NCBI RefSeq assembly: GCF_004010195.1
Contig: NC_057719.1
Span: 1,397,604-1,417,603 of the forward strand
Origin: Chiloscyllium plagiosum
Taxonomy: Eukaryota
DNA: 20,000 bases
Direction: 5' to 3'
A program made the translations under genes and the position numbers. Positions 2,961-20,000 of this stretch are shown here, piece after piece (the first letter of the stretch is position 1; every line of letters starts with the position of its first letter). The notes under the pieces were generated by a model that was not told the DNA's origin, made no database searches, and saw only the letters and a list, made by a program, of their open reading frames with translations.

Positions 2961-3756
2961 CATAGAACATAAAACAATACAGCACAGAACAGGCCCTTCG
3001 GCCCTCGATGTTGCGCCGACCTGTGAACTATTCTCAGCTCGTCCCCCTACACTATCCCAAAATCATCCATGTGCTTATCTAAGGATTGTTTAAAATTTCC
3101 CTATTGCGACTGAGTTGACTACATTAGCAGGTAGGGCATTCCATGCCCTTACCACTCTCTGCGTAAAGAACCTGCCTCTGACATCTGTCTTAAAGCTATC
3201 ACCCCTCAATTTGTAGTTATGCCCCCTCGTACATGCTGACATCATCATCCTAGGAAAAAGACTTTCACTGTCTATCCTATCTAATCCTCTGATCATCTTG
3301 TATGTCTCTATCAAATCCCCCCTTAGCCTTCTTCTCTCCAATGAAAACAGACCCAAGTCTCTCAGTCTTTCCTCATAAGACCTTCCCTCCAGACCAGGCA
3401 ACATCCTGGTAAATCTCCTCTGCACCTTTTCCAATGCTTCCACATCCTTCCCAAAATATGGCAACCAGAACTGTACACAATATTCCAAGTGTGGCTGCAC
3501 CAGTATTTTGTATAGTTACAGCTTGGTACGGTGGCTCTGGAACTCAATCCCTCTACCAATTAACATACTGTATGCCTTCTTAACAGCACTATCCACCTGG
3601 GTGGCAACTTTCAGGGATCTATGCATATGGATTCCAAGATCCCTCTGCACATCCACACTACTAAAAATCTTTCCATTGATCCAGTATTCTGCCTTCCTGT
3701 TATTCTTCCCAAAGTGCATCACCTCACATTTAGCTGCATTGAACTCCATTTGCCAC
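2961..3756 (-). mobile_element. CR1-clade LINE, 5'-truncated, with intact 3' tail
   Basis: ORFs 3516-3767 (WQMEFNAAKCEVMHFG..QRDLG) and 3090-3500 (PHLEYCVQFW..LEKVQRRFTRMLPGL..FFTQRVVRAWNALP); tail catagaacataaaacaatacagcacagaacaggcccttcggccc. Confidence 0.95.
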
Positions 3757-3824: not shown

Positions 3825-4598
3825 GAAACTTGAGTGCTTGGTGTGTAATGGTGCAGTGATAACAATCTCTCCCTCACTGTCAGCAAAACTAAAGAACGGA
3901 TCATCAACTTCAGGAAGCAAGGAAGAAGGCACAGCCCGATCCAAATCAACGGAGCTGAGATGGAGATGGTCAAGAGTGTCAAGTTCCTAGGAGTGACGAT
4001 CACCAACAATCTGTCCTTGATAACCCATGTTGATGTGATGGTCAAGAAGGCTCAGGAGGCAAAGGAAATTCAGCGGGTCTGTAAGGACAACCACAAACTT
4101 TAACAGATGCTCCATAAAAAAGCATTCTATCTGGATGCATCACAGCTTAGTACGGCAACTGCTCTGCCCAGGACCATAACAAACTACAGAGAATTGTGGA
4201 CACAGCCCAGACCATCACACAAACCAACCTTCCTTCCATTGACTCCGTCTATACTTCTTGATTCTGCAGAAAGATAGCTAATATCGTCAACACCCCTCCC
4301 ACACTGGTTTTAATCTCTTCTAACCTCTTCTGTTGGGCAGAAGATACAAACGCTTAAACACACACACCAACAGATTGAAGAACAGCTTCTTCCCTGCTGT
4401 TGTTAGACTGCTGAATGGGCCTCTCAGATTTCAAATTGAATGTTGATCTTACTTTTTGTACACCTTTTTTCCAGCTGTAACCTTATATTCCTCGCTACGT
4501 TCAATCCCCCTATGATCTTTCTATGTTATGATCTACTTGTATTGCACATAAAACAAAACTTTTCACTGTACTTAAGTACATGTAATGATAAATCAAAT
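3825..4598 (+). mobile_element. Rex1/Babar-clade LINE, 5'-truncated
   Basis: A frame from ~3848 reads WCSDNNLSLTVSKTKERIINFRKQGRRHSPIQINGAEMEMVKSVKFLGVTITNNL..VKKAQ, typical of Rex1 post-RT sequence; later NSFFPAVVRLLN; 3' UTR ends aaaacttttcactgtac..ataaatcaaat. Confidence 0.88.
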
Positions 4599-4651
4599 TG
4601 AGTCATATGGGGTGCCTGAAAGCTAGTTTGAGGTGATGAGATGTGGCTTTT

Positions 4652-4955
4652 CCTTTTATCCATTCATGGGCTGTGAGTGTCACTGGGTGGACTAGCATTT
4701 ATTGCCCATCTCTAATTGCTCAGAAGACAATTAAGAGTCATCCATGTCACTGGGTCTGGAGTCACATATAGGCCAGACCAGGTACGATGCAGCTTTCTTT
4801 CCTCAAAGGATGGTGATGAACCCACTTGGGTCTTTACGATCAATGACAGTGGTTACATGATTTCCCCCAGGTTAGCTTTTCATTCCAGGGTTTTGTTAAA
4901 TTTAAATGCTCACCATCTGCCAGGGTGAGATTTGAACCCACTTCCCCCAGCATCT
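4652..4955 (-). mobile_element. tRNA-derived SINE with conserved core and CR1-type 3' tail (family not named)
   Basis: B-box-like tgggttcaaatctc on the minus strand near 4927-4940; core ttaagagtca..gggtctggagtcacatataggccagaccagg shared with 9145-9950; tail shared with the LINE at 11322-11497. Confidence 0.8.
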
Positions 4956-5179
4956 CCCGAATGGATGTTCAGTTAACTACCTAAACTGAATTGAGAAATA
5001 TCAAGCAGAGCGATATGGCCAGATCGCCTGATATTGGTCAAGAGATAATTAATAACCAGGACACCAAGTAGAACTGCCTGGTTGCCTCCTGAATACTGCA
5101 ATGCGATCATCTACCCAAAGGGGAACTGGAAATCTCATTTAATAACCCAACACCTTCAACAGTGGGCGCCACATTCTTC

Positions 5180-5716
5180 TCCCTGTCTGAGATTGAACAC
5201 GACTGTTAGTGTCCTTGGTGTTGTGTGTGATGAGTGTCTGACTACCTGTTCACTGCCTTACTAATATGGCATATTTCCACCCACATCACAATGACCATCC
5301 TCTGTGACTCAGACACATCCTGTCCATTTTCTATCTTCTGTAAGTTTAAAATCATCCAAAACTCTGCTGCCAGTGTGTAATTTGCCCCAGATACTGTTTA
5401 CCTACTCCCTCCTGTGTTCTCTGCCTTTTGCTTGACCCTCAGTTAAACATTGTATTGATTTTCAAAATTCTCACCCTTGCTTTTAAATCCCTTCATGGCC
5501 TGCTTTGTGCCTCCTTTTTGTAATCTCCTGAAGCTCACATTTCCAGGGGACTTATTTTGACTTCTTGAGCATCGCTAAAAACTGACATGGCCCAGTTTAA
5601 TTGATGAGCTTGCAACAAATTGCAAGGACATAATGGCCAGATTATTTGTCTCACTGATGTTGTTTGTGGGATAAATATTGGCATTTTGTTGATTCCTGAA
5701 GATGTAATCACTCCAT
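5180..5716 (+). mobile_element. L2-clade LINE fragment, left part (interrupted by a Deu-SINE piece at ~5585-5685 and an LTR at 5717)
   Basis: Remnant motifs IIQNSAA.. and IDFQ/KILTLAFKSLHGL (L2 ORF2 C-terminus); joins to 6577 across the LTR. Confidence 0.7.
5585..5685 (-). mobile_element. Deu-domain SINE fragment
   Basis: ataatggccagattatttgtctcactgatgttgtttgtgggataaatattggc matches the other Deu copies. Confidence 0.6.
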
Positions 5717-6425
5717 TGTTACGACATGGGGCAAACCCCTCTGCTAATGTAAACCCGACACACAGAGAAGTTCAGCTCGCGCCGTAATCTGTTACATTCG
5801 AGAGGCAAAGAACTATCCCCGAGGTCACTACTTAAAGTAAAAATTAACAATTTTATTCTTTAAGTCCAAAAGGTAACATTAAACAACAGCTATTTACAAC
5901 TCCTTTCTCTGAAACCTATCCTTTACCTCCCACCCTACAATACTGGTCCAATTTAAAAAAAAATCACATTTCAAAACCAGTCAGCTTTGTCGATTCTCCT
6001 TTGTAGATTTTTCTAGCTCAGCTTCGGTCTTCTGCGGCAAAATTTCTTATGAACCGGTACCTTTCAGAAAGCTATTCGGTGAGCAGACTATACTTGTTGG
6101 TTTTCTTGGCAGTTTTCCCCCTAACTGTTCAAAATGTCTGGTTTTATACCCCAAAACATCAGATCATTTCATTGGTTTGATATCATCAAAACACTAAATT
6201 CGAATTTGATTGGATTTTCGTATCTGGAGCATAATTCAAACTGATAGGTCGAATTTGAATTTGTTTTTATTCCATGGCAATGCAAATCCAACTATTTGTT
6301 TCAACTAAGTATTACATTTTTAAATTGTTCAGGACACTGTGCTTTCAGTCGGTCCTTGCTAGCTCCCTCTCTCTTTCCTGTCTCCCTCCATGTCTGTGTC
6401 TGTCTCTCCGTCTCTCTCTGTCTGT

Positions 6426-6481
<56 letters not shown>

Positions 6482-6537
6482 GTCTCTCTGTCTCTCTGTC
6501 TCTCTCTGTGTCTCTCTCTCTCACACACACACACACT

Positions 6538-6573
<36 letters not shown>
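5717..6573 (-). mobile_element. Probable solo LTR
   Basis: Starts TGTTACGA and ends ACA, flanked by CAT/CAT. On the minus strand, CCAAT (6209-6213, 6171-6175), TATAAAA (6142-6148) and AATAAA (5852-5857) occur in U3-R-U5 order. Interrupts a colinear L2. Confidence 0.65.

Positions 6574-6575
<2 letters not shown>
6366..6575. repeat. Compound microsatellite (CT)n / (GTCTCT)n / (CA)n
   Basis: Directly visible; source of the SLSL/ERER/THTH ORFs. Confidence 0.99.
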
Positions 6576-6576
<1 letters not shown>

Positions 6577-6765
6577 TGGTAGCAGCTTGGTCTTAAGCTC
6601 GGAATTCTGTCCCTGAATTCTTCTCTAAGTTCTTCCTTAAATCCCCTGTTTGGATAGCCTTTTTTGATCCCCTTTCCTATTATATGCTCCTGTTCCATTT
6701 TGCCGGGCCCATTTCTATGAAATACTGAGGTGTTTTTCAGAGTTATAGTAATACGGATGGTGATT
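6577..6765 (+). mobile_element. L2-clade LINE 3' end, right part
   Basis: taagctcggaattctgtccctgaa..ccttaaatcccctgtttggatagcctttttgatc; reverse-complement similarity to 2330-2430. Confidence 0.6.
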
Positions 6766-6774
6766 GTTAAATTG

Positions 6775-6834
6775 TTCCTGATGAAAGGCTTATGCCTGAA
6801 ACATCGATTCTGCTTCTCCTTGGATGCTTCCTGA
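6775..6834 (+). mobile_element. Short hammerhead-motif element (Penelope-terminus-like), truncated copy
   Basis: CTGATGA-a-AGGC-ttat-GCCT-GAAAC-ATC then gattctgcttctccttggatgct, as in the copies at 13174, 14758 and 19241. Confidence 0.8.
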
Positions 6835-6940
6835 AGAGTAACCCAAGCAGACCCATTCCCCGATCCTATTACTCTATGTTTACCCCTAATTAATGCACCT
6901 AATTTACACATCCCTGAATACTGCGGGCAATTTAGCATGG
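6835..6940 (-). mobile_element. HE1-like SINE internal fragment
   Basis: gaagagtaacccaagcagacccatt..atgcacctaa..gggcaatttagcatgg is the reverse complement of 12510-12582. Confidence 0.75.
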
Positions 6941-7302
6941 TTTGAGTTGGGGTTTCTGTGTGAATTATCTGAGCCTCCTAATCTTGTTAGATATCATGAT
7001 AGCAATTCAAGGTTTTCACATGTCCCTGTTTCTGTTAACCACCACCTACCAGTTTCCCTTCCAAACACATACAGGCGTCACAATGAAAATGGGAAAGGTT
7101 ATTGTGCTGCACTAACAGTGCATACAGACGTCAGGCTTCCAGGTTTGTTTGAATCCCTGGGTTTACTTGTTATAACCTGCAGTGTCTGAAGAGAATGCTG
7201 ACTGTTCCTGAGTCAGCCAAAACAGTCCAAGTAATTCCATGATATTTTTCTGCACGTATATCAATATCCAAAGTTAATAATGGAGCTTTTGTTTACAATA
7301 TT

Positions 7303-7612
7303 GTTTTTTGGGATGTTATTATCAGTGGCAAGGCCAGCCTTCACTATCCAATCCTAATTGCCCTGGAGGTGGTGGTGTTGAGCTGCAGGCCATGGGGATA
7401 CCAACAGTGCTTTTTAGAAGGGAATTCTAGGATTTTGATCCAGCAACAGTGAAGGAACAATGATATATTTCCAAGGCAGGATGGTGTGGGGTCTGCAGGT
7501 GCTGGTATTCCCACTATTTGCCCACTACTTTCTAGAGGGGTAAAGTTGTGGGTTTGGAAGATGTTGTCGAAGGAGCATTGGTGAGTTGCTGCAGTGCAGC
7601 TTGTAGTGTACT
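7303..7612 (-). mobile_element. CR1-like LINE 3' fragment (second family)
   Basis: gggaattctaggattttgatccagcaacagtgaaggaacaatgatatatttccaagg; homologous to 10165-10545 and 11322-11497. Confidence 0.78.
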
Positions 7613-7837
7613 ACCTGCTTTAATTCATCACTGTAACTGCTGGAATGCTTGTGATTGAACCACAAGTTGTTTGCAGACAACAAACCATTCACCTTATTCT
7701 AATATATCCATTCAGAAAGGCCGTAGAATTTCACTAACCAAATCTTTCACAATTACTAATTTTGTATCCATCACCCTGCTGACAATCTAATTGTTTATTT
7801 TGCCTCCTGCATTCTCAGTGTTCCTCAACTTGCCTTT

Positions 7838-8125
7838 CATAGAATTTATAGAATTTATACAATGCTGAAAGAGACCATTCAGCTCATCAAGTCTGCACCA
7901 CCCCTCCGAACAGCAACCCACCCAGACTCTACCCTCCACCCTAGCCCTGTAACCCTGAATTTCCCATGTCTAACCAACCTCGCCTGCATATCCCTGGACA
8001 CTATGGGCCAATGTTAAGTTTGGTCAATCCATCTAACCTGTATGGCATTTGTACTCTGCGAGGAAACCAGAGCAGCTGGAGGAAACCCACACAAACCAGG
8101 AGCACATGCAAACTCCTCACTGATT
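7838..8125 (-). mobile_element. HE1-like SINE (V-SINE), lacking its 5' head
   Basis: Tail catagaatttatagaatt; body gaggaaaccagagcagctggaggaaacccacacaaac..tgcaaactcc is the reverse complement of 12414-12473. Confidence 0.85.
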
Positions 8126-9144
8126 GGCATGCTTTATTTTTGGTACTGATCGAGGTGAACATTTCAAGCACTGTTTTGTATCTTGCACATATCTAGGTTG
8201 CTGCCTGTCACATCTGGCAAGGCTGACAATCCTCAGTTTCTCCACTCTATTCAAGAAGTCAGCCTCTTGTGACTCAAAATGCCTTGCTTTTATCATCTGA
8301 GCGATCAGTGGATGAGTTGTCTGACCAGAGAACTGTATGATTCAATTATGACTTCCTCTGAGTTGTACTGTAATGGTTACATACTGCAAAAGAACTGAAA
8401 AAGGTTAGGGAAACTCAGCAGGTCTGATTGCATCTTTGGATAGAACCAGAAACTGCATAATGATATAAAAAAAAACCAGAAACAACACATGGTTGACCAT
8501 AAATATGACCCGGTCAGCCATGTGTTTCAGCCAGGTCCTGCCCTACTGAACTTGGCTACTTACCAACACAACTTCAATACTTTCCATTTGTATAGTCTCC
8601 TCTGACTTGCATGAGTCTTCAATGCCTTACTTATTGCAGTTTGCAGAATTCGGGCCCTAATTATTTCTAGTCAAGCTGTCCTGCCATCCCTCGCACAGGT
8701 ACCCGTGACCCAATCTCTGGCTATTTTTGTAACTAAGTTAGTCCGTGATGGTATAGCTGAGCAAATGTTGGTGTTACCATAACCCAGTTTATATGGATAT
8801 TTGTATGAACACTTCTATCTTGGTGAGTCATTATACTGCTCTGTAATCAATGAACCATTTAGTTCAGGAAATCTTTTAGATTCTGCAAAGTGGAATAAAC
8901 CAGCCTGAATGATCACTGGTAATGGTGTCCAGAAATAGGAAGACAAAGAAGAAACCCATTCAACCACACAGAATTCCTTCAAATTTTTCCAGTTCTTTAT
9001 TGTTAGTTCCACTCCTTTGCTCACCTTGATGGCTACTATCACATTCTCTTCGACATGTTAATATTGACTATGGTTGCAACAGTGGCTTCCAAATCTTAAT
9101 CATTCATTGCTACTTCCCTTAAATGTCCATCCTTTGATTATCAA

Positions 9145-9950
9145 TTTAGTTTGTTTATGGGATGTAGGTGTCACTAGCTGTGTCTGTGTTTATTGTTCAT
9201 TTGTACTGTATAGAGGGCAGTTAACAGTCAACCACACTGGTCTGGAATCATGTCAGCCAGACCAGATAAGAGCAGCAGATTCTCTTCCCTAAAGGATGTT
9301 AGTGATCCAGTTGGCTTTTTATGACCATGGACAGTGGTTACATGGTCACAGTTAGGCTGATCTTCTGTACCAGATTTTTGTTGAATCCACATGTTATCAC
9401 CTGCCATGTTAGAACAACGAACAAAGAAAATTTACAGCCCAGGAACAGGCCCTTCGGCCCTCCAAGCCTGAGCCGATCCAAATCCACTGTCTAAACCTGT
9501 CACCCAATTCCTAAGCATCTGTATCCCTCTGCTCCCCACCTACTCATGCATCTGTCCAGATGCACCTTAAATGAATCTATCGTGCCCCCCCCTCAAATCT
9601 CCTTTTTTCTAATGAAAACAAACCTAACCTACTCAACCTCTCTTCATAGCTAGCACCTTCCATACCAGGCAACATCCTCGTAAACCTTCTCCAAAGCGTC
9701 CACATCCTTTTGGTAATGTGGCGACCCGAACTGTACACCGTATTCTAAATGCAGCCGAACCAATGTCTTGTCCAATTTTAACATGATCTGCCAGCTCTCA
9801 TACTCAATACCCCGTCTGATGAAGGCAAGACTATCATATGTCTTCTTGACCACACTATCCACCTGTGCAGCATTTGAACCCATGTACCAGAACGTTGTTC
9901 TGGGATTCAGTATTGTTAGTCCAGTGACTTTATCACCACATCACTGCCTT
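9145..9950 (-). mobile_element. tRNA-derived SINE (same family as 4652-4955), split by a CR1 insertion: pieces 9145-9408 and 9869-9950
   Basis: ..cacctgccatg | agcatttgaacccatg rejoin to match ..catctgccagggtgagatttgaaccca at 4914-4940. Confidence 0.8.
9409..9868 (-). mobile_element. CR1-clade LINE 3' fragment with internal deletions
   Basis: ORF 9650-9883 (QVDSVVKKTY..LAFIRRGIEY..LVRLHLEYGVQFGSP); tail agaacaacgaacaaagaaaatttacagcccaggaacaggcccttcggccc. Confidence 0.92.
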
Positions 9951-9974
9951 TGCTCAATATTGGAACCATTTTTA

Positions 9975-10075
9975 TTTCCAAAGTGCTATTATTGAAATCA
10001 TTCCTTGTAATTTGAGGAAACAAAAACAGCCAATTTGTGCACAGTAATTTTCCACATGGTAATGTTCAGGCCATA
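9975..10075 (-). mobile_element. Deu-domain SINE fragment
   Basis: ttgtaatttgaggaaac..cagccaatttgtgcacagtaa resembles 18345-18400. Confidence 0.55.
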
Positions 10076-10164
10076 TTTGTTACATTTTGAGCAGGTGAGC
10101 TCAACTGCACTTTTAATATTGTGATAAGATTTTTCTTATTTTTGTTTAATTCGGAATTTACATT

Positions 10165-10545
10165 TCACTAGTTGGGCCAGCACGGATTGCCCCATTTCTC
10201 ATTAATCTGAGATGGTGGCCTTCTTGAATCACTGTAGTTCATTTGATATCGGTTCATCCACAATACCATTAGTGATGGAGTTCCAGCACTTCGTCCCAGT
10301 AATACTGAAGGAATAATGATATATTTCCAAGTTAGTATGGTGAGTAGCTTGGAGAGGAACTTGTAGGTGTTCTAATCTAGCTCTTGTCCTTGTCCTTGGA
10401 GATGATGATGGCTTTAGGTTTGGAAGGTGTTGTCTCAGGAACCTCTGACGTTCTGCAGTCCATTCTATAACTGATACAGCCATGACTGAGCATCTGTGGT
10501 GAAAGCAGTGAATATTGTGAATGTGGTGCCAACCAAGTGAGCTAC
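10165..10545 (-). mobile_element. CR1-like LINE 3' fragment (second family)
   Basis: Homologous to 7303-7612; translation ..SFSITGTKCWNSITNGIVD..LQ. Confidence 0.78.
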
Positions 10546-10549
10546 TTTC

Positions 10550-10627
10550 AGTCAGTGGCCCTTGCGTCCATGTTATTGATGTGGATTGTAAATAGTTGAG
10601 AGCCCAACACTGATTCCTGCGGCATGA
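10550..10627 (-). mobile_element. CR1 reverse-transcriptase fragment
   Basis: Minus strand reads PQESVLGSQLFTIHINNMD, a degenerate [16 protein letters not shown] motif. Confidence 0.65.
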
Positions 10628-10630
10628 TAC

Positions 10631-11321
10631 TAGAGTCATAGCACAGAAACAGACCATTTGGTCCAACTTACTTGTGCTGACTAGACATCCCAATCTGATC
10701 TGGTCCCATTTGTCAGCATATGGCCCAGATCCCTCTAAACTTTGCCTGGTCACATGCCCATCCAGATACCTTTTTAAATATTGTAATTGTACCAGTCTCC
10801 TCCACTTCTTCTAGCAGTTCATTCCACACACACATACACCATCCTCTGCATGAAAAAGCTGCCCCTTTAATCCCTTTTAAATATTTCCCCACTCATCTTA
10901 AACTTATGCCTTCTGGTTTTGGGCTCCATACTCTAGGAGGAAAAGATCTTGTCTATTTACCCTATCCATACCCCTCATGATTTTATAAACCTCTATAAGG
11001 TGACCCTTGGCCTCTGATGCTCCAGGGAAAACAGCCCCAGCCTATTCAGTCTCTCTCTATAGCTCAAACCCTCCAACTCCGGCAACATCCTTATAAATCT
11101 TTTCTGAACCCTTTCAAATTTAACAACATCCTTCCTGTAGCAGGGAGACAAGAACTGAACACAGTAATCCAAAGGTGGCCTAACCAATGTCCTGTACAGC
11201 CATGACATGGTGTCTTAACTCGTATAATCAAGGCACTGACCAATAAAGACAAGCGGGCTAAATGCTGCTGCCTTCGCCCTTCTACTTGCACATTCACTTT
11301 CAATGAATTATGTACCTGCAC
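10631..11321 (-). mobile_element. HER1-like CR1 LINE, 5'-truncated, with 3' tail
   Basis: ORF 10993-11208 (LYRTLVRPPLDYCVQF..ERVQKRFIRMLPELEGLSYRERLNRLGLFSLE); 3' UTR matches 11720-11950 and 19816-20000. Confidence 0.93.
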
Positions 11322-11497
11322 AGTTCCTTCAATGTTGCTGGGTCAAAATCTCTCTTATGACATTGTGGGTCTTCCTACAACGCACGGAATGTAATGGTTC
11401 AAGAAAGTACTTCACCACCACCTTCTCAAGGACAGGTAATAAATGATGGCCCAGCCAGTGACATCCACATCCCATGATTCCATATTTTTAAAAAAGA
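11322..11497 (+). mobile_element. CR1-like LINE 3' end (second family)
   Basis: ttccttcaatgttgctgggtcaaaatc..caccaccaccttctcaagg..ccagtgacatccacatcccatga then A-rich end; reverse complement of 7303-7460. Confidence 0.8.
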
Positions 11498-12212
11498 TTA
11501 AAGTCTGTCAACCCCAGCATGACTTATTTGTCTCTAATATCTGTTTCCTGTTTACCTATAATAGGATTTTCCTAAGTGCCCTTCAGTGCTTTGTCAGGGG
11601 TGTTAGCCTGCATTATAGATTCAGGTCATCAATCCGCAGGTTACACTGGTGTGAATGAATGTGGTTTGCTCGCTGAGTGGTGTGAATGCTATGAGGCCTC
11701 ATCTTTTGAAACCGGTTAGTCATACATGATAGGAACAGACCTTTCTGTCGGATTCGTCGGCACTGACCAGACATCCCAATCTCATCTAGTCCCATTAGCC
11801 AGCATTTGGCCCATATCCCTCCAAACCCTTCCTATTCGTATACCCATCCAGATGCCTTTTAAATGTTGTAATTATACCAGCCTCCATCACGTCCTCTGGC
11901 AGCTCATTCCACACACGTACCACCCTCTGTGAAAAAGTTTTGCCTTAGGTCCCTTTTAAATTGTTCCCCTCTCACCGTAAACCTATGCCTTCTCGTTTTG
12001 GACTCTCCTAGCCTGGGAAAAAAAGACCTTTGCTTTTCACCCTATCCATGTCCCTTATGATTTTATAGACCTCTATAAGGTCACCCCTCAGTCTCCAAAG
12101 CTCCCAGCCTTTTCAGTCTCCCTAAAATGAAAACCCTCCAGTCCTGGCAAAACCCTTATAAATCTTCTCTGCATCCTTTCAAGTTTAACAGCAGTTTTGC
12201 TCAAGTGTCTGG

Positions 12213-12294
12213 GTAGTTGTGGCCGAGTGGTTAAGGTGAGGGATTTGGAATTCTTTGGGGCTTCCCTGTGCAAGTTTGAATCCTACCGGCTATG
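12213..12294 (+). pseudogene. tRNA-Ser pseudogene (82 nt, long variable arm)
   Basis: gtagttgtggccgagtggttaaggtgagggatttggaattctttggggcttccctgtgcaagtttgaatcctaccggctatg aligns end to end with the vertebrate tRNA-Ser GTAGTCGTGGCCGAGTGGTTAAGGCGATGGAC..GGTTCGAATCCTGCCGACTACG; many CpG-type changes, damaged B box, no CCA. Confidence 0.9.
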
Positions 12295-12322
12295 GCTGGG
12301 GGTGGAGTTTGCTTCCGATTTT

Positions 12323-12645
12323 GGGGGGCGGCATAGTGGATCACTGGTTAGCACTGATGCTTTACAGCACCAGGGACCCGGGTTCAATTCCCCCCTTGGG
12401 CAACTGTCTGTGTGGAGTTTGCACATTCTCCCCGTGTCTGTGTAGGTTTCCTCCGGGTGCTCTGGTTTCCTCCCACAGTCCAAAAATGTGCAGGTCAGGT
12501 GAATTGGCCAGGCTAAATTGCTCGTAGTGTTAGGTGCATCGGGCTAATGTAGCGAAATGCGTCTGGGTGGGTTAGTCTTCGGAAGGTTGGTGTGGACTTG
12601 TTGGGCCAAATGGCCTGTTTTCAAACTGCAGAGAATCTAATCTAA
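12323..12645 (+). mobile_element. HE1-like SINE, essentially full length
   Basis: tRNA-like head (tagtggatcactggttagc; gggttcaattcc), V-domain gtgtggagtttgcacattctccccgtgtctg..ggtttcctccgggtgctc, LINE-like tail ending aatctaatctaa. Confidence 0.92.
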
Positions 12646-13173
12646 CATCCTTCCTGTAAATGACCAGAATTGAACGCATTATTTCAAAAGTAACCTCACC
12701 AATGTCCTGTCCAGTCACAACATGACATCCCAACTTCTATATCCAGTGTTCTGACCAATGAAGGCAAGCATGCCAATCACCACCTATGTCTTCACTTTCA
12801 AGGAACTACGTACCTATACATTGTTTGGCAACATTCCCCAGGGCCTTATCTTTAAGTGTATAAGTCCTGCCCTGGTTTACATTACCAAGATGCAACACTT
12901 TTACATTTAGCTAAATTAAACTCCATCTGTCATTCATTGGCCCATCTGATCAAGGGTGCGTAGTATACAGTTAACCAGTACTTGGTGCCTATTGTTGGTC
13001 ACAGGCCTCCAGTCTGAAAAACAACCCTCTATCACTATGCTGTGACTCCTAACTTTAAATTAATTTTGTAAACTGATTGGCTGTCTTCCACCCTGACTCC
13101 ATGTGATCTAATTGCTAACCAGTCTATCATGGGGAACATTGTTGGACGCTTTGCTGAATCCCATATAGACAAC

Positions 13174-13326
13174 GGAGCAGGAAGTGAGGACTGCAGATGT
13201 TGGAGATAAGAGACAAAAAGTGTGTGCTGGAAAAGCACAGCAGGACAGGCAGCATCAGAGGAGCAGGAGAATCAATGTTTTGGGCATAAGCCCTTCATCA
13301 GGAATGTGAGGCCACACTTTTTGACC
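13174..13326 (-). mobile_element. Short hammerhead-motif element with a small inverted terminal piece
   Basis: Minus strand: cattcCTGATGAaGGGCttatGCCCaaaacattgattctcctgctcc.. (core decayed at CpGs). 13313-13322 is inverted relative to 13214-13223. Flanks CCCATATAGAC (13160-13170) and CCCAAATAGAC (13327-13337). Confidence 0.85.
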
Positions 13327-13372
13327 CCCAAATAGACGCTGTCTATTGCTCTCCTTTCATCACTCATCTTGG

Positions 13373-14153
13373 GATAAAGGGGTCATATTTAGGAGGGCAG
13401 CAGGTGATTCAAGGAGCTCCAGAGGGGGTGTTAGGACCACAACTATTTATGTTAAACATTAATGATCTGAATGAAGGAACTGAGGGCATTGTTGCTAAGT
13501 TTGTAGATGACACAAAGATAGGTAGAGGGACAGATAGTGTTGAGGATACAGGGAGGCTGCAGAAGGATTGGAGTGTGGGCAAAGAACTGGCAGATGGAAA
13601 ACATTATGTATGAGGTTAAGCACTTTGGTAGGAAGAATAGAGACGTAGACTATTTTTTTAAATGAGAAAGCTTTCAGAAATCTGAAACACAAAGGAACTT
13701 GAGAGTCCTTATTCAAGATTCTCTTAAGGTTAGCATGCATGTTCAGTTGGCAATTAGGAAGGCAAATGCAATGTTTGCATTCATTTTAAGAGGGCAATAA
13801 TACAAGAGCAGAAATGTCATACTGAGATTGTAAAAGGCTCTGTTCTGACCACATTTGGAATACAGTATTGTGAACAGCTTTTGGCTTTGTATCTCAGGAA
13901 GGATATGCTAGCATTAGAGGGATCTAGAGGAGGCTTACAAGAATGATCCTGGGGTTGAAGGTCTTGTCATATGAGGAGCGATTGAAGACTGTGGGTCTGT
14001 ACGTGATGACAGATCAATGAGAGGTGTTCTGATTCAAACTTAGACAATACTGAGAGGCCTGGATGCAGTAGACATGTAGAAGATATTTCCACTTGTAGGA
14101 GAGACTAAGACCTGATGGCACAGCCTCAGGGTAAAGGGATGATGCTTTCGAAC
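13373..14153 (+). mobile_element. CR1-clade LINE ORF2 fragment (RT to C-terminus)
   Basis: ORF 13404-13613: GAPEGVLGPQLFMLNINDL..VAKFVDDTKIG (RT FADD motif); downstream matches 1-450. Confidence 0.92.
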
Positions 14154-14159
14154 TCTCCC

Positions 14160-15105
14160 TTTCAGGCTCTCCCTGTCCACCCTATCTAACCCCCTGATTA
14201 TCTTCTATGTCTCTATTAAGTCACCTCTCAATCTTCTTCTCTCTAACGAGAACAGCCTCAAGGCCCTCAGCCTTTCCTCGTAAGACATTCCTTCCATTCC
14301 AGGCAACATCCTAGTAAATCTCCTCTGCACCCTTTCCAAAGCTTCCACATCCTCCTTATAATGCAGTGACCAGAACTGTACACAATACTGTGGCTGTACC
14401 AGAGCTTTGTACAACTGCAGCATAACCTCCTGGTTCTGGAACTCAATCCCTCTATTAATAAAGGCCAAAACACTGTATGCCTTCTTAACAACCCTGTCAA
14501 TCTGGGTGGCAACATTCAGGGATCTGTGTACATGTGCCACCTCTCAGCCCAGCTCTGCATCCTTTCTATGTCTCTCTGCAACCTACTACATCCTTCGTCA
14601 CTATCCACAACTCCACCGACCTTAGTGTCATCCGCAAATTTACTAACCCACTCTTCTAAGCCCTCATCCAGGTCATTTATAAAAATGACGAACAGCAGTG
14701 GACCCAACACCGACCCTTGTGGTACGCCACCAGTAACTGGACACCAAGATGAATATGCTGAAAATGTGTTGCTGGAAAAGCACAGCAGGTCAGGCAGCAT
14801 CCAAGGAGCAGGAGAATCGACGTTTCGGTCATGAGCCCTCATGCCCGAAACGTCGATTCTCCTGCTCCTTGGATGCTGCCTGACCTGCTGCGCTTCTCCA
14901 GCAACACATTTTCAGCTCTGATCTCCAGCAGCTGCAGTCCTCACTTTCTCCACCAAGATGAATATGTTCCGTCAACTACAACCCTCTGTTTTCTTTCAGC
15001 AAGCCAATTACTGATCCAAACTGCTTTGTCTCCCACAATCCCATTCCTCCGCATTTTGTATAATAGCTTACTGTGGGGAACCTTATCGAACACCTTGCTG
15101 AAATA
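14160..15105 (-). mobile_element. Relatively young CR1 ORF2 fragment (RT domain), internal deletion near 14537, interrupted at 14758-14950
   Basis: FSKVFDKVPHSKLL..WISNWLAERKQRVVVDG / [32 protein letters not shown] / QIDRVVKKAYSVLAFINRGIE..LERVQRRFTRMLPG. Confidence 0.95.
14758..14950. mobile_element. Palindromic (head-to-head) copy of the short hammerhead-motif element, with 16-bp target duplication
   Basis: Arms 14757-14835 and 14838-14916 (79 bp, 3 mismatches); CACCAAGATGAATATG at 14742-14757 and 14951-14966. Confidence 0.93.
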
Positions 15106-15124
15106 TGATTTCTGAAGAATCTTA

Positions 15125-16000
15125 ATATGAATTTGGGTGGGAAAGTTAGACATGAGGGAGAAACAAGGACGCTACAGAAGAGTTTAGATAGGTCAAGTGA
15201 TTCAGTGAAAATGTGTAGGATGTGAGAAACTGTCCACTTTGATAGGGAAAATGAAAGAAAAAAGGAGAATATTATTAAAACTGGCATTCATGGTGAGCTG
15301 GTTGCACATGTAGATTAATCACAAAGTTTGCATGCAGATTCAGCAAGCAGTTGGGAAGGCAAATTGGATGTTGATTTTAATTACAAAACAGTTATAGCAT
15401 AGGAATAAAATGAGTGGTTTTGAAACTATGTAAAGCCTTGAGATCACATTTGGAGTATTGTGTAGTACCCAGGGTAATTAACAATGAGTAATGCTGGCCC
15501 ACCTAGTAAAGCCCTCATACCCTTAATGAATATAAAAATGTACTGTGTGATTGCCTCATTCAATGAACGATTTCCTGAAAGGGTTTTTACAGGTTTACCA
15601 CATTGATTGCTGAACCAGGGAGAGGTTAGGAATGATTTGAGTAGGTTAAGCCAATATTTCCTGGAGATTAGAAAAGTAGGAGACAACATTGTTGGAGCAG
15701 GTAAAGTTGTTATAGGGCTTGTTGGGCTGGATGCTGACAGGCTGTTTAATTGAATCTCTAACACGGATCACCCTCTCGGGGTAAGGGGCTATTCTTTTAC
15801 GTTTGGGATGATGAGAAATTTCAAGGTTGAAATTCTCTGGATGACCACAGCTTGCTTGAGTGGCCATTGAGAGAGTTTGACATTTTTAGATGGGCGATGA
15901 TGAGAAAAGGTGAAATTGAGATTGAAAATCAGTCATGATCATATTGATTCACAGAGCAAGCCTAAGGATCAAATAGCCTCCACTGCTTAGTCTCTGTTGA
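15125..16000 (+). mobile_element. Old degenerate CR1 3' fragment (with a short second-family tail at ~15470-15540)
   Basis: cagcaagcagttgggaaggcaaattggatgttg..agatcacatttggagtattgtgt..aatcagtcatgatcatattga parallel to 13740-13880 and 595-660. Confidence 0.7.
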
Positions 16001-16175
16001 ACTTAGTAGTGTGCTCACACTGTCCACAGCTGTTCCCACTGCCCATGCTTCTTAATATTTCTTCATACAGTCTGTCCTTTGTCAACATGGTAACCTTAGT
16101 TTTACATCCTTCTAAAAAAATCATACTTTAGTACTTTTTGTTCATTCACTTTGATTCTGAACTTTTATATTCCAG

Positions 16176-16256
16176 GTGCTGGTAAAGCTCCATCGCTGGG
16201 AACAGGGTTCCACACCAACCTTGGGAAGGAGTCACGTGCACAGACTTTACAGAATG
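16176..16256 (+). CDS. Candidate 81-nt internal exon of an unidentified host gene
   Basis: Unique, more GC-rich island; branch-like tctgaac, pyrimidine tract and CAG acceptor; ATG|gtaaat donor; length divisible by 3; two frames open. No protein recognised. Confidence 0.35.
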
Positions 16257-16359
16257 GTAAATGAGCAACAATTTTGACTTTTAGATGTCCTTGACTTGTC
16301 TTTTTCTTTCTTCCAGAACTGTTCATTGATCGTTTAATTAGAATGCTGTTTTAACATTG

Positions 16360-17355
16360 AATTTGTGCAAATGACATGAAGTTAGTGCAGTTGTGAATAG
16401 AGAAGAAGGTTATCAAAGGATACAGCTGGATGCAGAGTAGTTGGAAAGTTGCACAGAGAAATGACAGATGGAGTTTATTCCAGCCAACTGTGAGGAGATG
16501 CATCTTGGGAGGTCAAATGCAAGAGGAAGTTCTTCAGTAACTGGCAGAACCTTTAGCAGCATTGATGTACAGAGAGATCTTGGGTGCAAGTCCATAGCTC
16601 CCTGTATGTGGAAGCACAAGTGGATAAGCTGATAAATAAGGCATGTGACAAGCTTGTCTGTGAGGCAGCAGTGCTAACCACTGTGCCACCGTGCCACCCC
16701 AGATCTTGGGTGCAAGTCCATAGCTCCCTGTATGTGGAAGCACAAGTGGATAAGCTGATAAATAAGGCATGTGACAAGCTTGTCTTCATTGGTCAGAATG
16801 TTGTGTATAAAAGTTGGCAAGTCATGTTGCAGCTGTGTAAGATTTTAAGTTAGGCCACATTTGGAGTAGTGTGTGCAGTAACTGTTGCCACTCTATGTGA
16901 AGGATGTGGAGGTTTTGGAGACGGTGCAAAAGAGATTTACCAGGATCTTGCCCAGATTGAAATGTGGTAGGTATAAGAAGAGGTTTGGATTGTCTTTACT
17001 TGGATTGTTTTTATTGGAACATCAGAGGCTGAAGAAGGACCTGATCGAACTGTAGAAAATTGAGAGGCATAGACAGTGGAAAATTGGAATCTTTTTCCCA
17101 GGGTGGCAATATCAAATAATAGGGAGCGTAGGGGGCCTAAGGTGAGGGTGGGAAAGTTTAAGGAAGATTGCCAGGCAATGTTTTTTCAAATAAACTTGTT
17201 GGACTATAATCTGGTGTTGTGTGATTTTTAAGAAGCATTTGAAGGCAGAGAATATAGATTGATTAGAGGGGACTATATACAGGCAAATGTGATTAATTTA
17301 GAATGGCATCATGGTTGGTGGAGACATGTTGAACTGAAGGGCATTTTCCTGTGCT
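16360..17355 (+). mobile_element. CR1-clade LINE 3' fragment including tail
   Basis: WQMEF-like tgacagatggagttt, QRDLGVQVHSSL..QVDKLINKA..LVFIGQNVVYKSWQVMLQL; tail gaagggcattttcctgtgct. Confidence 0.9.
16575..16785. repeat. Perfect 85-bp direct duplication (16575-16659, 16701-16785) flanking an HE1 SINE 5' head (16658-16700, minus strand)
   Basis: Copies read identical base by base; the insert's reverse complement is ggggtggcacggtggcacagtggttagcactgctgcctcacag, matching 12325-12367. Confidence 0.95.
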
Positions 17356-17829
17356 AAATGTTCAGGGTTCTGTGTTTTGTTTTCCAATGTGATAGAGTCC
17401 TGGATGCACATAAATACTGAGGTTACCTTTCACTTTGACTGCAGTCTGTAGAGTGTTCTCTCAGTCTCTAATTGAATGAACTGACATTCGTATACGTCCC
17501 TTGTGGAATTAAGGCAAATTTGTTTTTTCATGGGTAGTGTGTTGTCACAATTCCAGTTGCTAGACTCCTGATTCTGTTCATTGAACAAATCTTTATCGTG
17601 TACAATACACTTCCATTGTGGACAGATTTAGAAAACTGATCCTGTGCTTTTTTTAAAAAACTCTAAATATTTTGCATCCTTCAATCTAACAGGAAGTGAT
17701 TTCTGTATGTGCACTGGCAGTTGTATCATGTGTTCTAAGTTTTGTCTATTTGTAATCTATTTATAATAATCTATGTGCATTTACTAACATTTCCAGTCCT
17801 GTCCATCAATCCACTCAAAACATGAAGCC

Positions 17830-18010
17830 TAGACTTGTCTCCCCAAAATACTGTGGATGGTGGGAGTTTGTTGAAATGTTACCCTCTGCAGATGGTAGAT
17901 TTTTTTAAATGCGTGAGTAGCAATGAAATGGAATGAAGTAAATAAATTGAATTAGGGTACGGGAAGCCATTGATCTAATTGAGTAGTAGAACAGGCATCC
18001 CGTGTTCATA
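17830..18010 (+). mobile_element. Very degenerate CR1 3' end
   Basis: gatggtagatttttt..agccattgatctaattgagtagtagaacaggc resembles 515-630. Confidence 0.45.
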
Positions 18011-18274
18011 AGCTAATTTGTTACATCACTGGAACAAAGAGATGATCTGCGCTGATTTTAAAAATTGTGTTCTCATGGCTGATGTTCACTGAGACAGCCC
18101 CAGGGCCTTGACAGCAGGAGAGGTTGATATTCTCAAGCTGGTAATAGGACCTGTAGGGTTAATCAGGCTCCTGCAGCTCCTTAAAGTGTAAGTGTTTGCC
18201 CTACCATTTAAGGCCATTTCTTTCCTGTCACTAGATAGCAATATCACAAGATAATTATGGTCAAGGAAACCTAT

Positions 18275-18492
18275 GAAAGAAAGACTTGTATTTGTACAAT
18301 TATGTTGTATTTTACAGCTTGTTGAAATACATTTAAGTGTATTCCCTGTAATGTCTGAAATACAGCAACCAATTTGCACATAGCAAGATTCCATAAATGG
18401 CAATATAATCATGAGCAAATATTTGTTTTAATGATGATGAATAAATATTAACCAATGGAGAAGCCAGTCAATTGGAGACAACTCCTCTGCTC
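18275..18492 (-). mobile_element. Deu-domain SINE, 3' part with tail
   Basis: Tail gaaagaaagacttgtattt; cagcaaccaatttgcacatagcaagattccataaa; aactcctctgctc. Confidence 0.75.
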
Positions 18493-19240
18493 AACAAAGG
18501 GCGAGGTCACATTAGATTTGGCATTGGGTAATGAACCTGGCCAGGTGTTAGATTTGGAGGTAGGAGAGCACTTTGGTGATAGTGACCACAATTAGGTTGT
18601 GTTTACTTTAGTGATGGAAAGGGATAGGTATTTTGCAAGGTTTGTGAAGGTTTGTAGCTCAGGTTGAGGTTTAGGGTGTAGGTTGGAATAGGCCACTGTT
18701 GGAATATTGCAAGAGTGCCAGGCCTCTAGGAATCCTCTCAGAAAACAGAGGAGAACCTCCTATACAATGTATTCAAGATGAACGGATACTCAAAAAATAT
18801 AGTCCGCAGATTCCTCAGGAACAAACAGACCAAACACAGCCAGAAACCCTAACCACCTAACCATACATCAAATAAGTTTCAGAAATGACAGCCAGACTAC
18901 TAAGACCCCTCGGAATCCTAGTAACAAACCCAGCAACACTCTCAAACAAAAACTAACAAACTTAAAAGACCCAGTACAACTCATGGACAAAACCAACGTC
19001 GTCTACAAAATTCCATGCAAGGACTGCCACAAACACTATGTAGGACAAACAGGAAGAAAGTTAGCCACCAGGATACACGAACACCAGCTAGCCACAAAAA
19101 GACACGATCCCCTCTCCCTCGTAGCCCTACACATGGAAGAAAAAAACCACCATTTTGACTGGGACAACACATCTATCCTGGAACAGGCTAAGCAAAGACA
19201 TGCCAGAGATCTCCTAGAGGCCTGGCACTCTAACCACAAC

Positions 19241-19333
19241 CCTCCTGATGAAGGGCTTTTGCCCGAAATGTCGATTTCGCTGCACCTTGGATGCTGCCTG
19301 AACTGCTGTGCTCTTCCAGTACCACTAATCCAG
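19241..19333 (+). mobile_element. Short hammerhead-motif element inserted into the Penelope ORF
   Basis: CTGATGA-a-GGGC-tttt-GCCC-GAAA-TGTC at 19245-19272; flanked by ACTCTAACCACAAC (19227-19240) and ACTCCAACCACAAC (19334-19347). Confidence 0.9.
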
Positions 19334-19498
19334 ACTCCAACCACAACGCCATAAACAAACACACAGATCTAGATACCATCTATCAACCCCTCAGAAAACG
19401 AACAGGAAATGACATCACCACAAACCCCAGGAATCCTATCCTGGACAAACATATAAATAGAAAGCAGGAGACAACAGCTTTGCTTCACTTGGAGGTCG

Positions 19499-19538
19499 CC
19501 ACTGATGATGTTACCTAGCCAGGTAATGAAACGTCTGG
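19499..19538 (+). ncRNA. Minimal type I hammerhead ribozyme in the Penelope 3' terminus
   Basis: Stem I CCA/TGG; core CTGATGA 19502-19508; stem II GTTACC-tagcca-GGTAAT; GAAA 19528-19531; palindromic ACGT stem III; GTC cleavage triplet 19533-19535. Confidence 0.85.
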
Positions 19539-19815
19539 ATATCAAACCTACAGCTCAGCGAGCAAACCCACCCTAAGGGATAGGTATATACACCGCAGGG
19601 CAAGAGTTATAGCTCAGGGAAAGGCAATTAGAATGCGATTAGGCAAGATTTAGGATGTGTAGGATGGGGAAGGAGATTGCAGGGATGGGCACAATTGAAA
19701 TATGGAGCTTATTTAAGAACAGCTACTTTGTGGCCTTGCTAAGTATGTACCTGTCAGGCAGTGATGAAGTAGTCGAGTGAGGGAGTGTGGTTTACTAAAG
19801 AAGTTGTATCTCTTG

Positions 19816-20000
19816 TCATCGAGACATAGAGATGTACAGCATGGAAACAGACCCTTCGGTCCAACCCGTCCATGCCGACCAGATATCCCAACCTAATCTA
19901 GTCCCACCTGCCAGACCCGGCCCATATCCCTCCAAACCTTTCCTATTCATATACCCATCCAAATGCCTCTTAAATGTTGCAATTGTACCAGCCTTTCCAC
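19816..20000 (-). mobile_element. HER1-like CR1 LINE 3' tail, running off the right edge
   Basis: catagagatgtacagcatggaaacagacccttcggtccaac..ggcccatatccctccaaacc matches 10631-10800 and 11719-11890. Confidence 0.92.

Follow-up and report, generated by a model that had tools for sequence, protein, structure and literature searches.

Short hammerhead-bearing repeats in Chiloscyllium plagiosum are terminal units of an autonomous, putatively Neptune-type Penelope element

Penelope-like elements (PLEs) that carry an endonuclease (EN+) are known to leave insertions that are 5'-truncated, partly tandem or bounded by inverted pseudo-long terminal repeats (pLTRs), with a tail of 30–40 bp (Craig et al. 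2021, PMC8557442; Adineta Pen2a, PMC3846280), and a zinc-finger-like Cys motif in the linker between reverse transcriptase (RT) and endonuclease (EN) marks the Neptune/Nematis group (PMC8557442). For PAc, internal starts of reverse transcription bracket the tail, both strands are extended and uncleaved RNA is used (PMC11167929), and the pLTR of Drosophila Penelope has an internal promoter (PMC2377424). Retrozymes have already been described as PLE derivatives, including one cartilaginous fish (bioRxiv 10.64898/2026.07.22.740005). The literature likewise covers pLTRs in inverted or solo form, tails and dispersed minimal hammerheads (PMC8557442, PMC3846280, PMC4209133). Here we analyse a 20,000-nt stretch of Chiloscyllium plagiosum DNA (RefSeq GCF_004010195.1, contig NC_057719.1, positions 1,397,604–1,417,603, forward strand; the whole stretch is called the window) in which an original prediction had placed four copies of a short, non-coding, retrozyme-like family with a hammerhead motif.

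We found that these short repeats are the pLTR, with or without a tail of ~37 nt, of an autonomous Penelope element that is putatively of the Neptune type. The existence of an autonomous Penelope parent is near certain, and the idea that Penelope machinery moves the repeats is borne out; the unit is the terminus of that element. Throughout, the C of CTGANGA is position 0; the predicted hammerhead cut falls after +27 and a cleaved RNA would start at +28.

The parent element and its short copies

The parent was recovered from both of its ends in the 3.56-Gb genome. Among 29 other best-matching loci, six are preceded by a C-rich tract on their upstream side, and in three of these six the sequence goes on into a GIY-YIG frame. 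A search with an internal segment of the open reading frame (ORF) returned 12 loci, all of which end in the pLTR unit, although in two the start of the unit is deleted. In the other direction, copies that run past the tail enter the start of the ORF, with the likely ATG at +163. When 12 of these ORF-start loci were extended, three (L186, L190 and L187) were found to hold a 5' pLTR, ORF start, RT, EN and 3' pLTR in order, and two more (L184 and L188) are nearly complete; the remainder are deleted, truncated or gapped. The unit at L186 is ~3.8 kb long. The resulting layout is pLTR, leader, ORF (RT, Cys linker, GIY-YIG), C-rich 3' untranslated region and pLTR, and tblastn with a full-length homologue (P0017) along L186, L190, L187 and L184 showed a single ORF with RT followed by the GIY-YIG endonuclease. 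The pLTRs occur in tandem or inverted with an optional 30–40 bp tail, as expected of an EN+ Penelope element.

Domain searches agree with this layout to differing degrees. The family sequence matches RVT_1 below the cutoff (E=1e-5), and Pfam GIY-YIG was unmatched in the decayed family fragments, so the EN motif was read from translations. The best homologues, 48–72% identical, come from sharks and rays (Chiloscyllium, Rhincodon, Stegostoma and Hypanus); they carry PF00078 and PF01541 and show RT, a C-x4-C-x2-C linker and GIY-YIG. The same Cys motif in the RT–EN linker was seen at three loci of the family (L139, L134 and L047) and in the proteins P0001–P0003.

We made three further observations on the parent. 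The C-terminus of a Stegostoma prediction (P0003) matches a translation through the same hammerhead region, which suggests that the same pLTR exists in that shark. One long copy (L062:4204-4460) has the internal ORF segment as five tandem repeats of ~53 nt. Three nt beyond the end of the tail (L170:1501-1520; +112 to +128 family-wide), a branch-point/pyrimidine/TAG motif resembles a splice acceptor and lies 35 nt ahead of the likely start codon. No joint ends at this motif among those shown, and neither a good donor nor a spliced read was seen.

For a census, we searched 100 arbitrarily placed 10-kb stretches (0.963 Mb non-N) with the family profile. This gave 167 clusters, of which 126 with a strong pLTR arm were counted as insertions: 51 inverted, 40 short and 35 that run on upstream by more than 20 nt. 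Taking the sample as representative, the genome would hold ~465,000 insertions. Target site duplications (TSDs), mostly of 13–17 bp, were called in 42 of 91 short or inverted units versus 9 of 379 random positions, with a search window shorter than most long units require. Divergence from the profile consensus has a median of 12%, subfamily differences included, and copies of a young subfamily are 92–98% identical to one another.

The geometry of paired copies is uniform. All 47 adjacent arm pairs are head-to-head and none is tail-to-tail, and 41 of the 47 combine one tailed and one untailed arm. The centres of the pair junctions follow either arm, so priming from two strands and fold-back cannot be separated on this basis. 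Mini-tandems also occur, built from a pLTR, the tail, part of the ORF start and a second pLTR that usually begins near -4; at 13 loci the spacings all differ (78–1,246 nt). Some contain two hammerheads 200–650 nt apart, and each such locus has its own junction (L143-L145, L150-L152, L154, L158, L164, L165, L170, L173, L174, L176, L180 and L181). These would offer dimeric cleavage a natural substrate, and retrozymes might arise from them.

The 5' boundary, the extra G and the hammerhead

Two classes of 3' end were found, one at about +75 to +98, where the pLTR ends, and one at +125/126, where the tail ends. At the other side, 80 of 145 arms start between -10 and +5 with the mode at -3/-4 (161 arms, 16 of them censored by gaps or edges), and the ends pile up at -5 to -3. 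The 5'-end hazard per nt is 0.084 at -5 to 0 and 0.060 at -10 to -6, compared with 0.0015–0.005 beyond -10 and beyond +10. A minimal hammerhead with a non-random 5' boundary beside it had been predicted, and these data uphold it. The original prediction named random 5' truncation of an autonomous element as the competing account; the autonomous parent does exist, but truncation is non-random and the boundary is enriched.

The boundary precedes the predicted cleavage site by ~30 nt. At that site one arm starts at +28 and three at +30, with no peak, which indicates that cleavage does not set the boundary and that the ribozyme does not define it as had been proposed. Nor is the stop a general property of hammerhead-bearing elements in this genome, because a second Penelope family, with its hammerhead core at 19502 of the window, lacks it: blastn with the end of that family gave 15 matches in a random 1 Mb, almost none of them short, and 1 of the 15 starts near the core, by a method that differs from the hazard count used for the pLTR family.

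The base just outside the boundary carries a further signal. In long copies position -5 is C or T and never G (0 of 47). Genome-wide, the exact 34-mer from -5 was found with G 3,098 times versus 1,511 times with A, where base composition predicts 0.71 to 1. With a degenerate pattern, the first 100 matches listed have 24 G, 5 A, 4 T and 67 C at -5, as counted by eye; four of the 24 G could be templated by the opposite arm and the others follow varied bases. At the cleavage-site junction we counted 4 G versus 7 A among 100 matches listed (Fisher p=0.008 for the difference), and starts there number ~200 versus ~4,600 at -4, figures from different patterns that compare in order of magnitude only. 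By the consensus rules for initiators and TATA-like segments, the A at -4 lies within an initiator-like TCATTC/ACATTC, ~31 nt past TATTTAT. Work by Gilbert in 2005 is reportedly the source cited for cap copying as the origin of an extra 5' G. The G excess at -5 is as expected from copying of the mRNA cap, to which such a base has been attributed (PMC4038843).

The explanation we favour, with reasonable though not strong confidence, is a run-off in which reverse transcription would start inside the RNA leader and run off a 5' end, probably capped, that lies four bases ahead of the hammerhead core. Transcription would start at the A at -4, and the mRNA would then hold two copies of the priming region. 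Long, randomly truncated copies would result from priming in the 3' repeat, and run-off cDNAs of ~90–130 nt with the cap copied as an extra base from priming in the leader. Palindromes would come from priming at both nicked strands or from fold-back of the cDNA end, and mini-tandems from a jump to another leader fragment. The hammerhead would be maintained by selection in the masters, yet uncleaved RNA would serve as template. That the hundreds of thousands of copies are retroviral-style strong-stop products, with the cap copied as G and often both target strands used, seems to us an evenly balanced proposition. If true, the start of transcription and the two priming sites of a vertebrate Neptune element could be read off the copies, which would also show that a conserved ribozyme stays uncut in the transposing RNA.

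Several points weigh against this explanation. The ends spread from -10 to +10, and about half of the ORF-start copies carry a longer 5' pLTR, so that jumps or read-through RNA are needed. Position -4 is the outer edge of helix I and a self-complementary stretch, and a structural stop fits the position equally. The control for G, taken at boundary -1, proved G-rich as well, since G is templated there by fold-back junctions; with this control confounded, specificity to -5 rests on 11 events, and a hard stop of any kind followed by an untemplated C would leave the same trace. Single-cell reads from 3' poly(A) libraries on one locus (L160; 824 reads, both strands) showed no pile-up of starts or ends and no joints, and a second read run gave 0 reads there. 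Loose ends at -4 mirror the genomic boundaries found in contigs of another run and are uninformative on transcription. The in vitro precedent concerns a Poseidon element rather than a Neptune one, and the linker motif is the sole basis on which the parent is putatively called Neptune-type.

The strongest alternative keeps the same Neptune parent and has the short copies primed in the 3' repeat, with RT stalling or folding back at -4, either at the margin of the folded hammerhead or where the C-rich tract begins; a transcription start would play no part. We regard this as possible but unlikely. It draws on the position of -4 at the outer end of helix I, which is 4 bp long, and on recurrent fold-back junctions that use short self-complementary words around -3 to +10, palindromes at inverted junctions having been interpreted as self-priming elsewhere (PMC3846280); the L160 reads, which show no RNA start, also suit it. 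However, a stall does not predict that G should be in excess behind varied flanks, the same stopping point is shared by solo copies and mini-tandem junctions, which have no inversion, and the 19502 family shows no such stop.

The original prediction had the repeats as a separate non-coding family mobilised in trans, and a SINE-like lineage, in which some short copies are transcribed and remobilised by the Neptune protein, would fit the predominance of short and inverted units (91 of 126 insertions, with ORF-start sequence only twice in the same sample) and the finding that pLTRs suffice for trans mobilisation in Adineta. We consider it improbable. The autonomous parent was found, and when six diagnostic subfamilies were scored, without a tree, each held long as well as short members, as did the 36 arms left unassigned, giving no master lineage separate from the autonomous element. 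Moreover, palindrome junctions and arm lengths vary by locus, and the TATA-like upstream segment is absent from short copies.

The hammerhead itself is under selection. The family motif is a minimal type I hammerhead, with a CUGANGA / GAAA / NUH core, stem II and a short helix I, and is predicted to be self-cleaving. The full core is kept in 41 of 104 arms, with subfamily variation at N7, loop II and a helix I mismatch. A lineage with a compensatory change in stem II counts 200 exact copies, 96 of the first 100 listed sharing the same N7, versus 1,023 single-change copies. Intact cores and this lineage indicate that the hammerhead is selected in master elements. Priming takes place downstream of the cut, however, and the uncut site is contained within long copies, which agrees with the Anolis element in pointing to unprocessed RNA as template.

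A retrozyme RNA, cut by the ribozyme and possibly circular, with ends set by cleavage, gains from this selected hammerhead, from the two-hammerhead mini-tandems and from the derivation of animal retrozymes from pLTRs (bioRxiv 10.64898/2026.07.22.740005), but it is very improbable and its cleavage-defined boundary is largely refuted: 5' ends show no peak at +28, the mini-tandem spacings all differ, the fetched loci showed no array with at least three equal units, in the window the copies stand alone or inverted rather than as fixed-unit tandems each with a hammerhead, and the minimum free energy (MFE) fold of the monomer is not a hammerhead. The MFE folds of both the young monomer and a mini-tandem lack it, and are uninformative for a dimer- or protein-assisted ribozyme.

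The window and its surroundings

The profile search returned exactly the four predicted loci in the window and no others, and the three predicted target duplications were also recovered (Table 1). Profile matches extend over 6775-6834 (+; -3 to +56), 13309-13178 (-; -8 to +124) and, in the palindrome, 14839-14761 (-; +7 to +86) and 14838-14951 (+; +11 to +125); the fourth, 19228-19325 (+), aligns at -14 to +80, while the sequence places the insertion at 19241-19333.

Table 1. Copies of the pLTR family and their target site duplications in the window.
Feature	Position	Strand	Element positions	Remarks
3'-truncated pLTR copy	6775..6834	+	-3..+56	decayed minimal hammerhead; TSD looked for, none found
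pLTR + tail arm	13171..13311	-	-10..+124 plus 7 further nt	core with G12>A, C17>T
Inverted 15-nt stub of pLTR end	13312..13326	+	+77..+91	head-to-head with arm 13171..13311; from sequence
TSD pair, 11 bp, 1 mismatch	13160..13170 and 13327..13337			flanks 13174-13326 copy
Tail-less inverted arm	14758..14839	-	+7..about +89	from repeat listing and profile
Tailed direct arm	14838..14950	+	+11..+125	CTGANGA absent; from sequence and profile
TSD pair, 16 bp, exact	14742..14757 and 14951..14966			flanks 14758 palindrome
Solo tail-less pLTR copy	19241..19333	+		another subfamily; within GIY-YIG frame of a different Penelope element
TSD pair, 14 bp, 1 mismatch	19227..19240 and 19334..19347			flanks 19241 copy

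Hammerheads had been predicted at all four loci. They are present, in decayed form, in the copies at 6775, 13174 and 19241, but both arms of the palindrome lack CTGANGA, and none of the four copies fully matches the family hammerhead consensus. The core at 13301 carries the changes listed in Table 1, the C15.2-G16.2 pair is broken at 6778, and C15.2>T leaves a wobble at 19245. An AGGC/GCCT pair at the first copy, read earlier as a retained stem II, is the only one among 226 arms, compared with 35 G-T and 8 A-C, and so reflects decay and not a lineage. The copy at 13174-13326 exists as predicted but is really an inverted-type insertion because of its stub. The absence of attached coding sequence holds for these four copies and not for the family. 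An Rfam scan gave no hammerhead match in the window, and for the palindrome only hairpin-driven miRNA matches below the gathering score. The 6775 copy abuts an unrelated common repeat (6829-6950, with 21 matches in a random 1 Mb).

The second Penelope family occupies 18803-19575 (+) with the 3' end of a Poseidon-like element that lacks the Cys linker. It has a GIY-YIG frame (Pfam E=0.002, below cutoff), the core at 19502 and a 3' end at about +65 to +74. Its hammerhead had been held to belong to a separate family, and this was confirmed, as no DNA similarity to the pLTR family beyond chance was found.

Other repeats surround these insertions. The 14758 palindrome interrupts an RT-coding, LINE-like fragment (RVT_1 E=8e-10), and fragments of this LINE-like family lie at 659-1011, 3259-3629, 9607-9760, 10637-12193, 14164-14757, 16575-16962 and 19835-19994. 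Within one of them, 16575-16785 has an exact 85-nt direct repeat around a 41-nt SINE-like piece. A tRNA-like match at 12213-12294 (+; 36.8 bits, above the Rfam gathering score) adjoins SINE-like DNA and is probably a decayed copy.

Comparison with known systems

As a repeat family this one is ordinary, and may well be catalogued already in Repbase or Dfam; its proper annotation is Neptune pLTR and not retrozyme, MITE or miRNA. In literature titles and abstracts we found nothing on this shark family, on PLEs whose 5' stop is fixed and bears an extra G or on a PLE cap-G run-off. The family is valuable as a natural experiment on a very large scale, bearing on the origin of inverted and tailed Penelope insertions and on the role of the hammerhead, and the junction statistics predict a start at -4, priming near +90 and +125 and no cleaved template.

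Among described systems, EN+ Neptune PLEs share the pLTR-ORF-pLTR layout, RT with Cys linker and C-terminal GIY-YIG, head-to-head inverted pLTRs, the tail at one end, TSDs and a pLTR hammerhead (PMC8557442, PMC3846280). The shark family differs from those descriptions, so far as the parts cited go, in that most insertions are ~90–250 bp, stop at a fixed 5' position and show an excess of G, and its TSDs are mostly 13–17 bp compared with 8–10 bp in Adineta. Non-LTR retrozymes are likewise non-coding, hammerhead-bearing, pLTR-related and found as two-hammerhead tandems (Li, Clavereau & Pollet, bioRxiv 10.64898/2026.07.22.740005). Unlike them, as described there, the shark family has no fixed unit or array, its ends lie off the cleavage site and palindromes dominate over tandems.

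Minimal hammerheads of metazoan PLEs (Cervera & de la Pena 2014, PMC4209133) share with the shark motif the lack of a real helix III, a short helix I, an extra base before stem II and copies in the thousands, solo or on opposite strands, that derive from truncated PLEs. The shark family has a stem II of 4 bp versus 7–8 bp in Schistosoma families, and its copy number is far above the 4,000–9,000 motifs given there for coelacanth and Xenopus, although counting methods differ. PAc, a Poseidon element of Anolis and thus of a different clade (Frangieh et al. 2024, PMC11167929), has its ORF start in stem II, whereas the likely start codon of the shark element is at +163. PAc nevertheless resembles the shark family in having two 3' end classes that bracket the tail ~90–125 nt past the hammerhead and in having no ends at the cleavage site.

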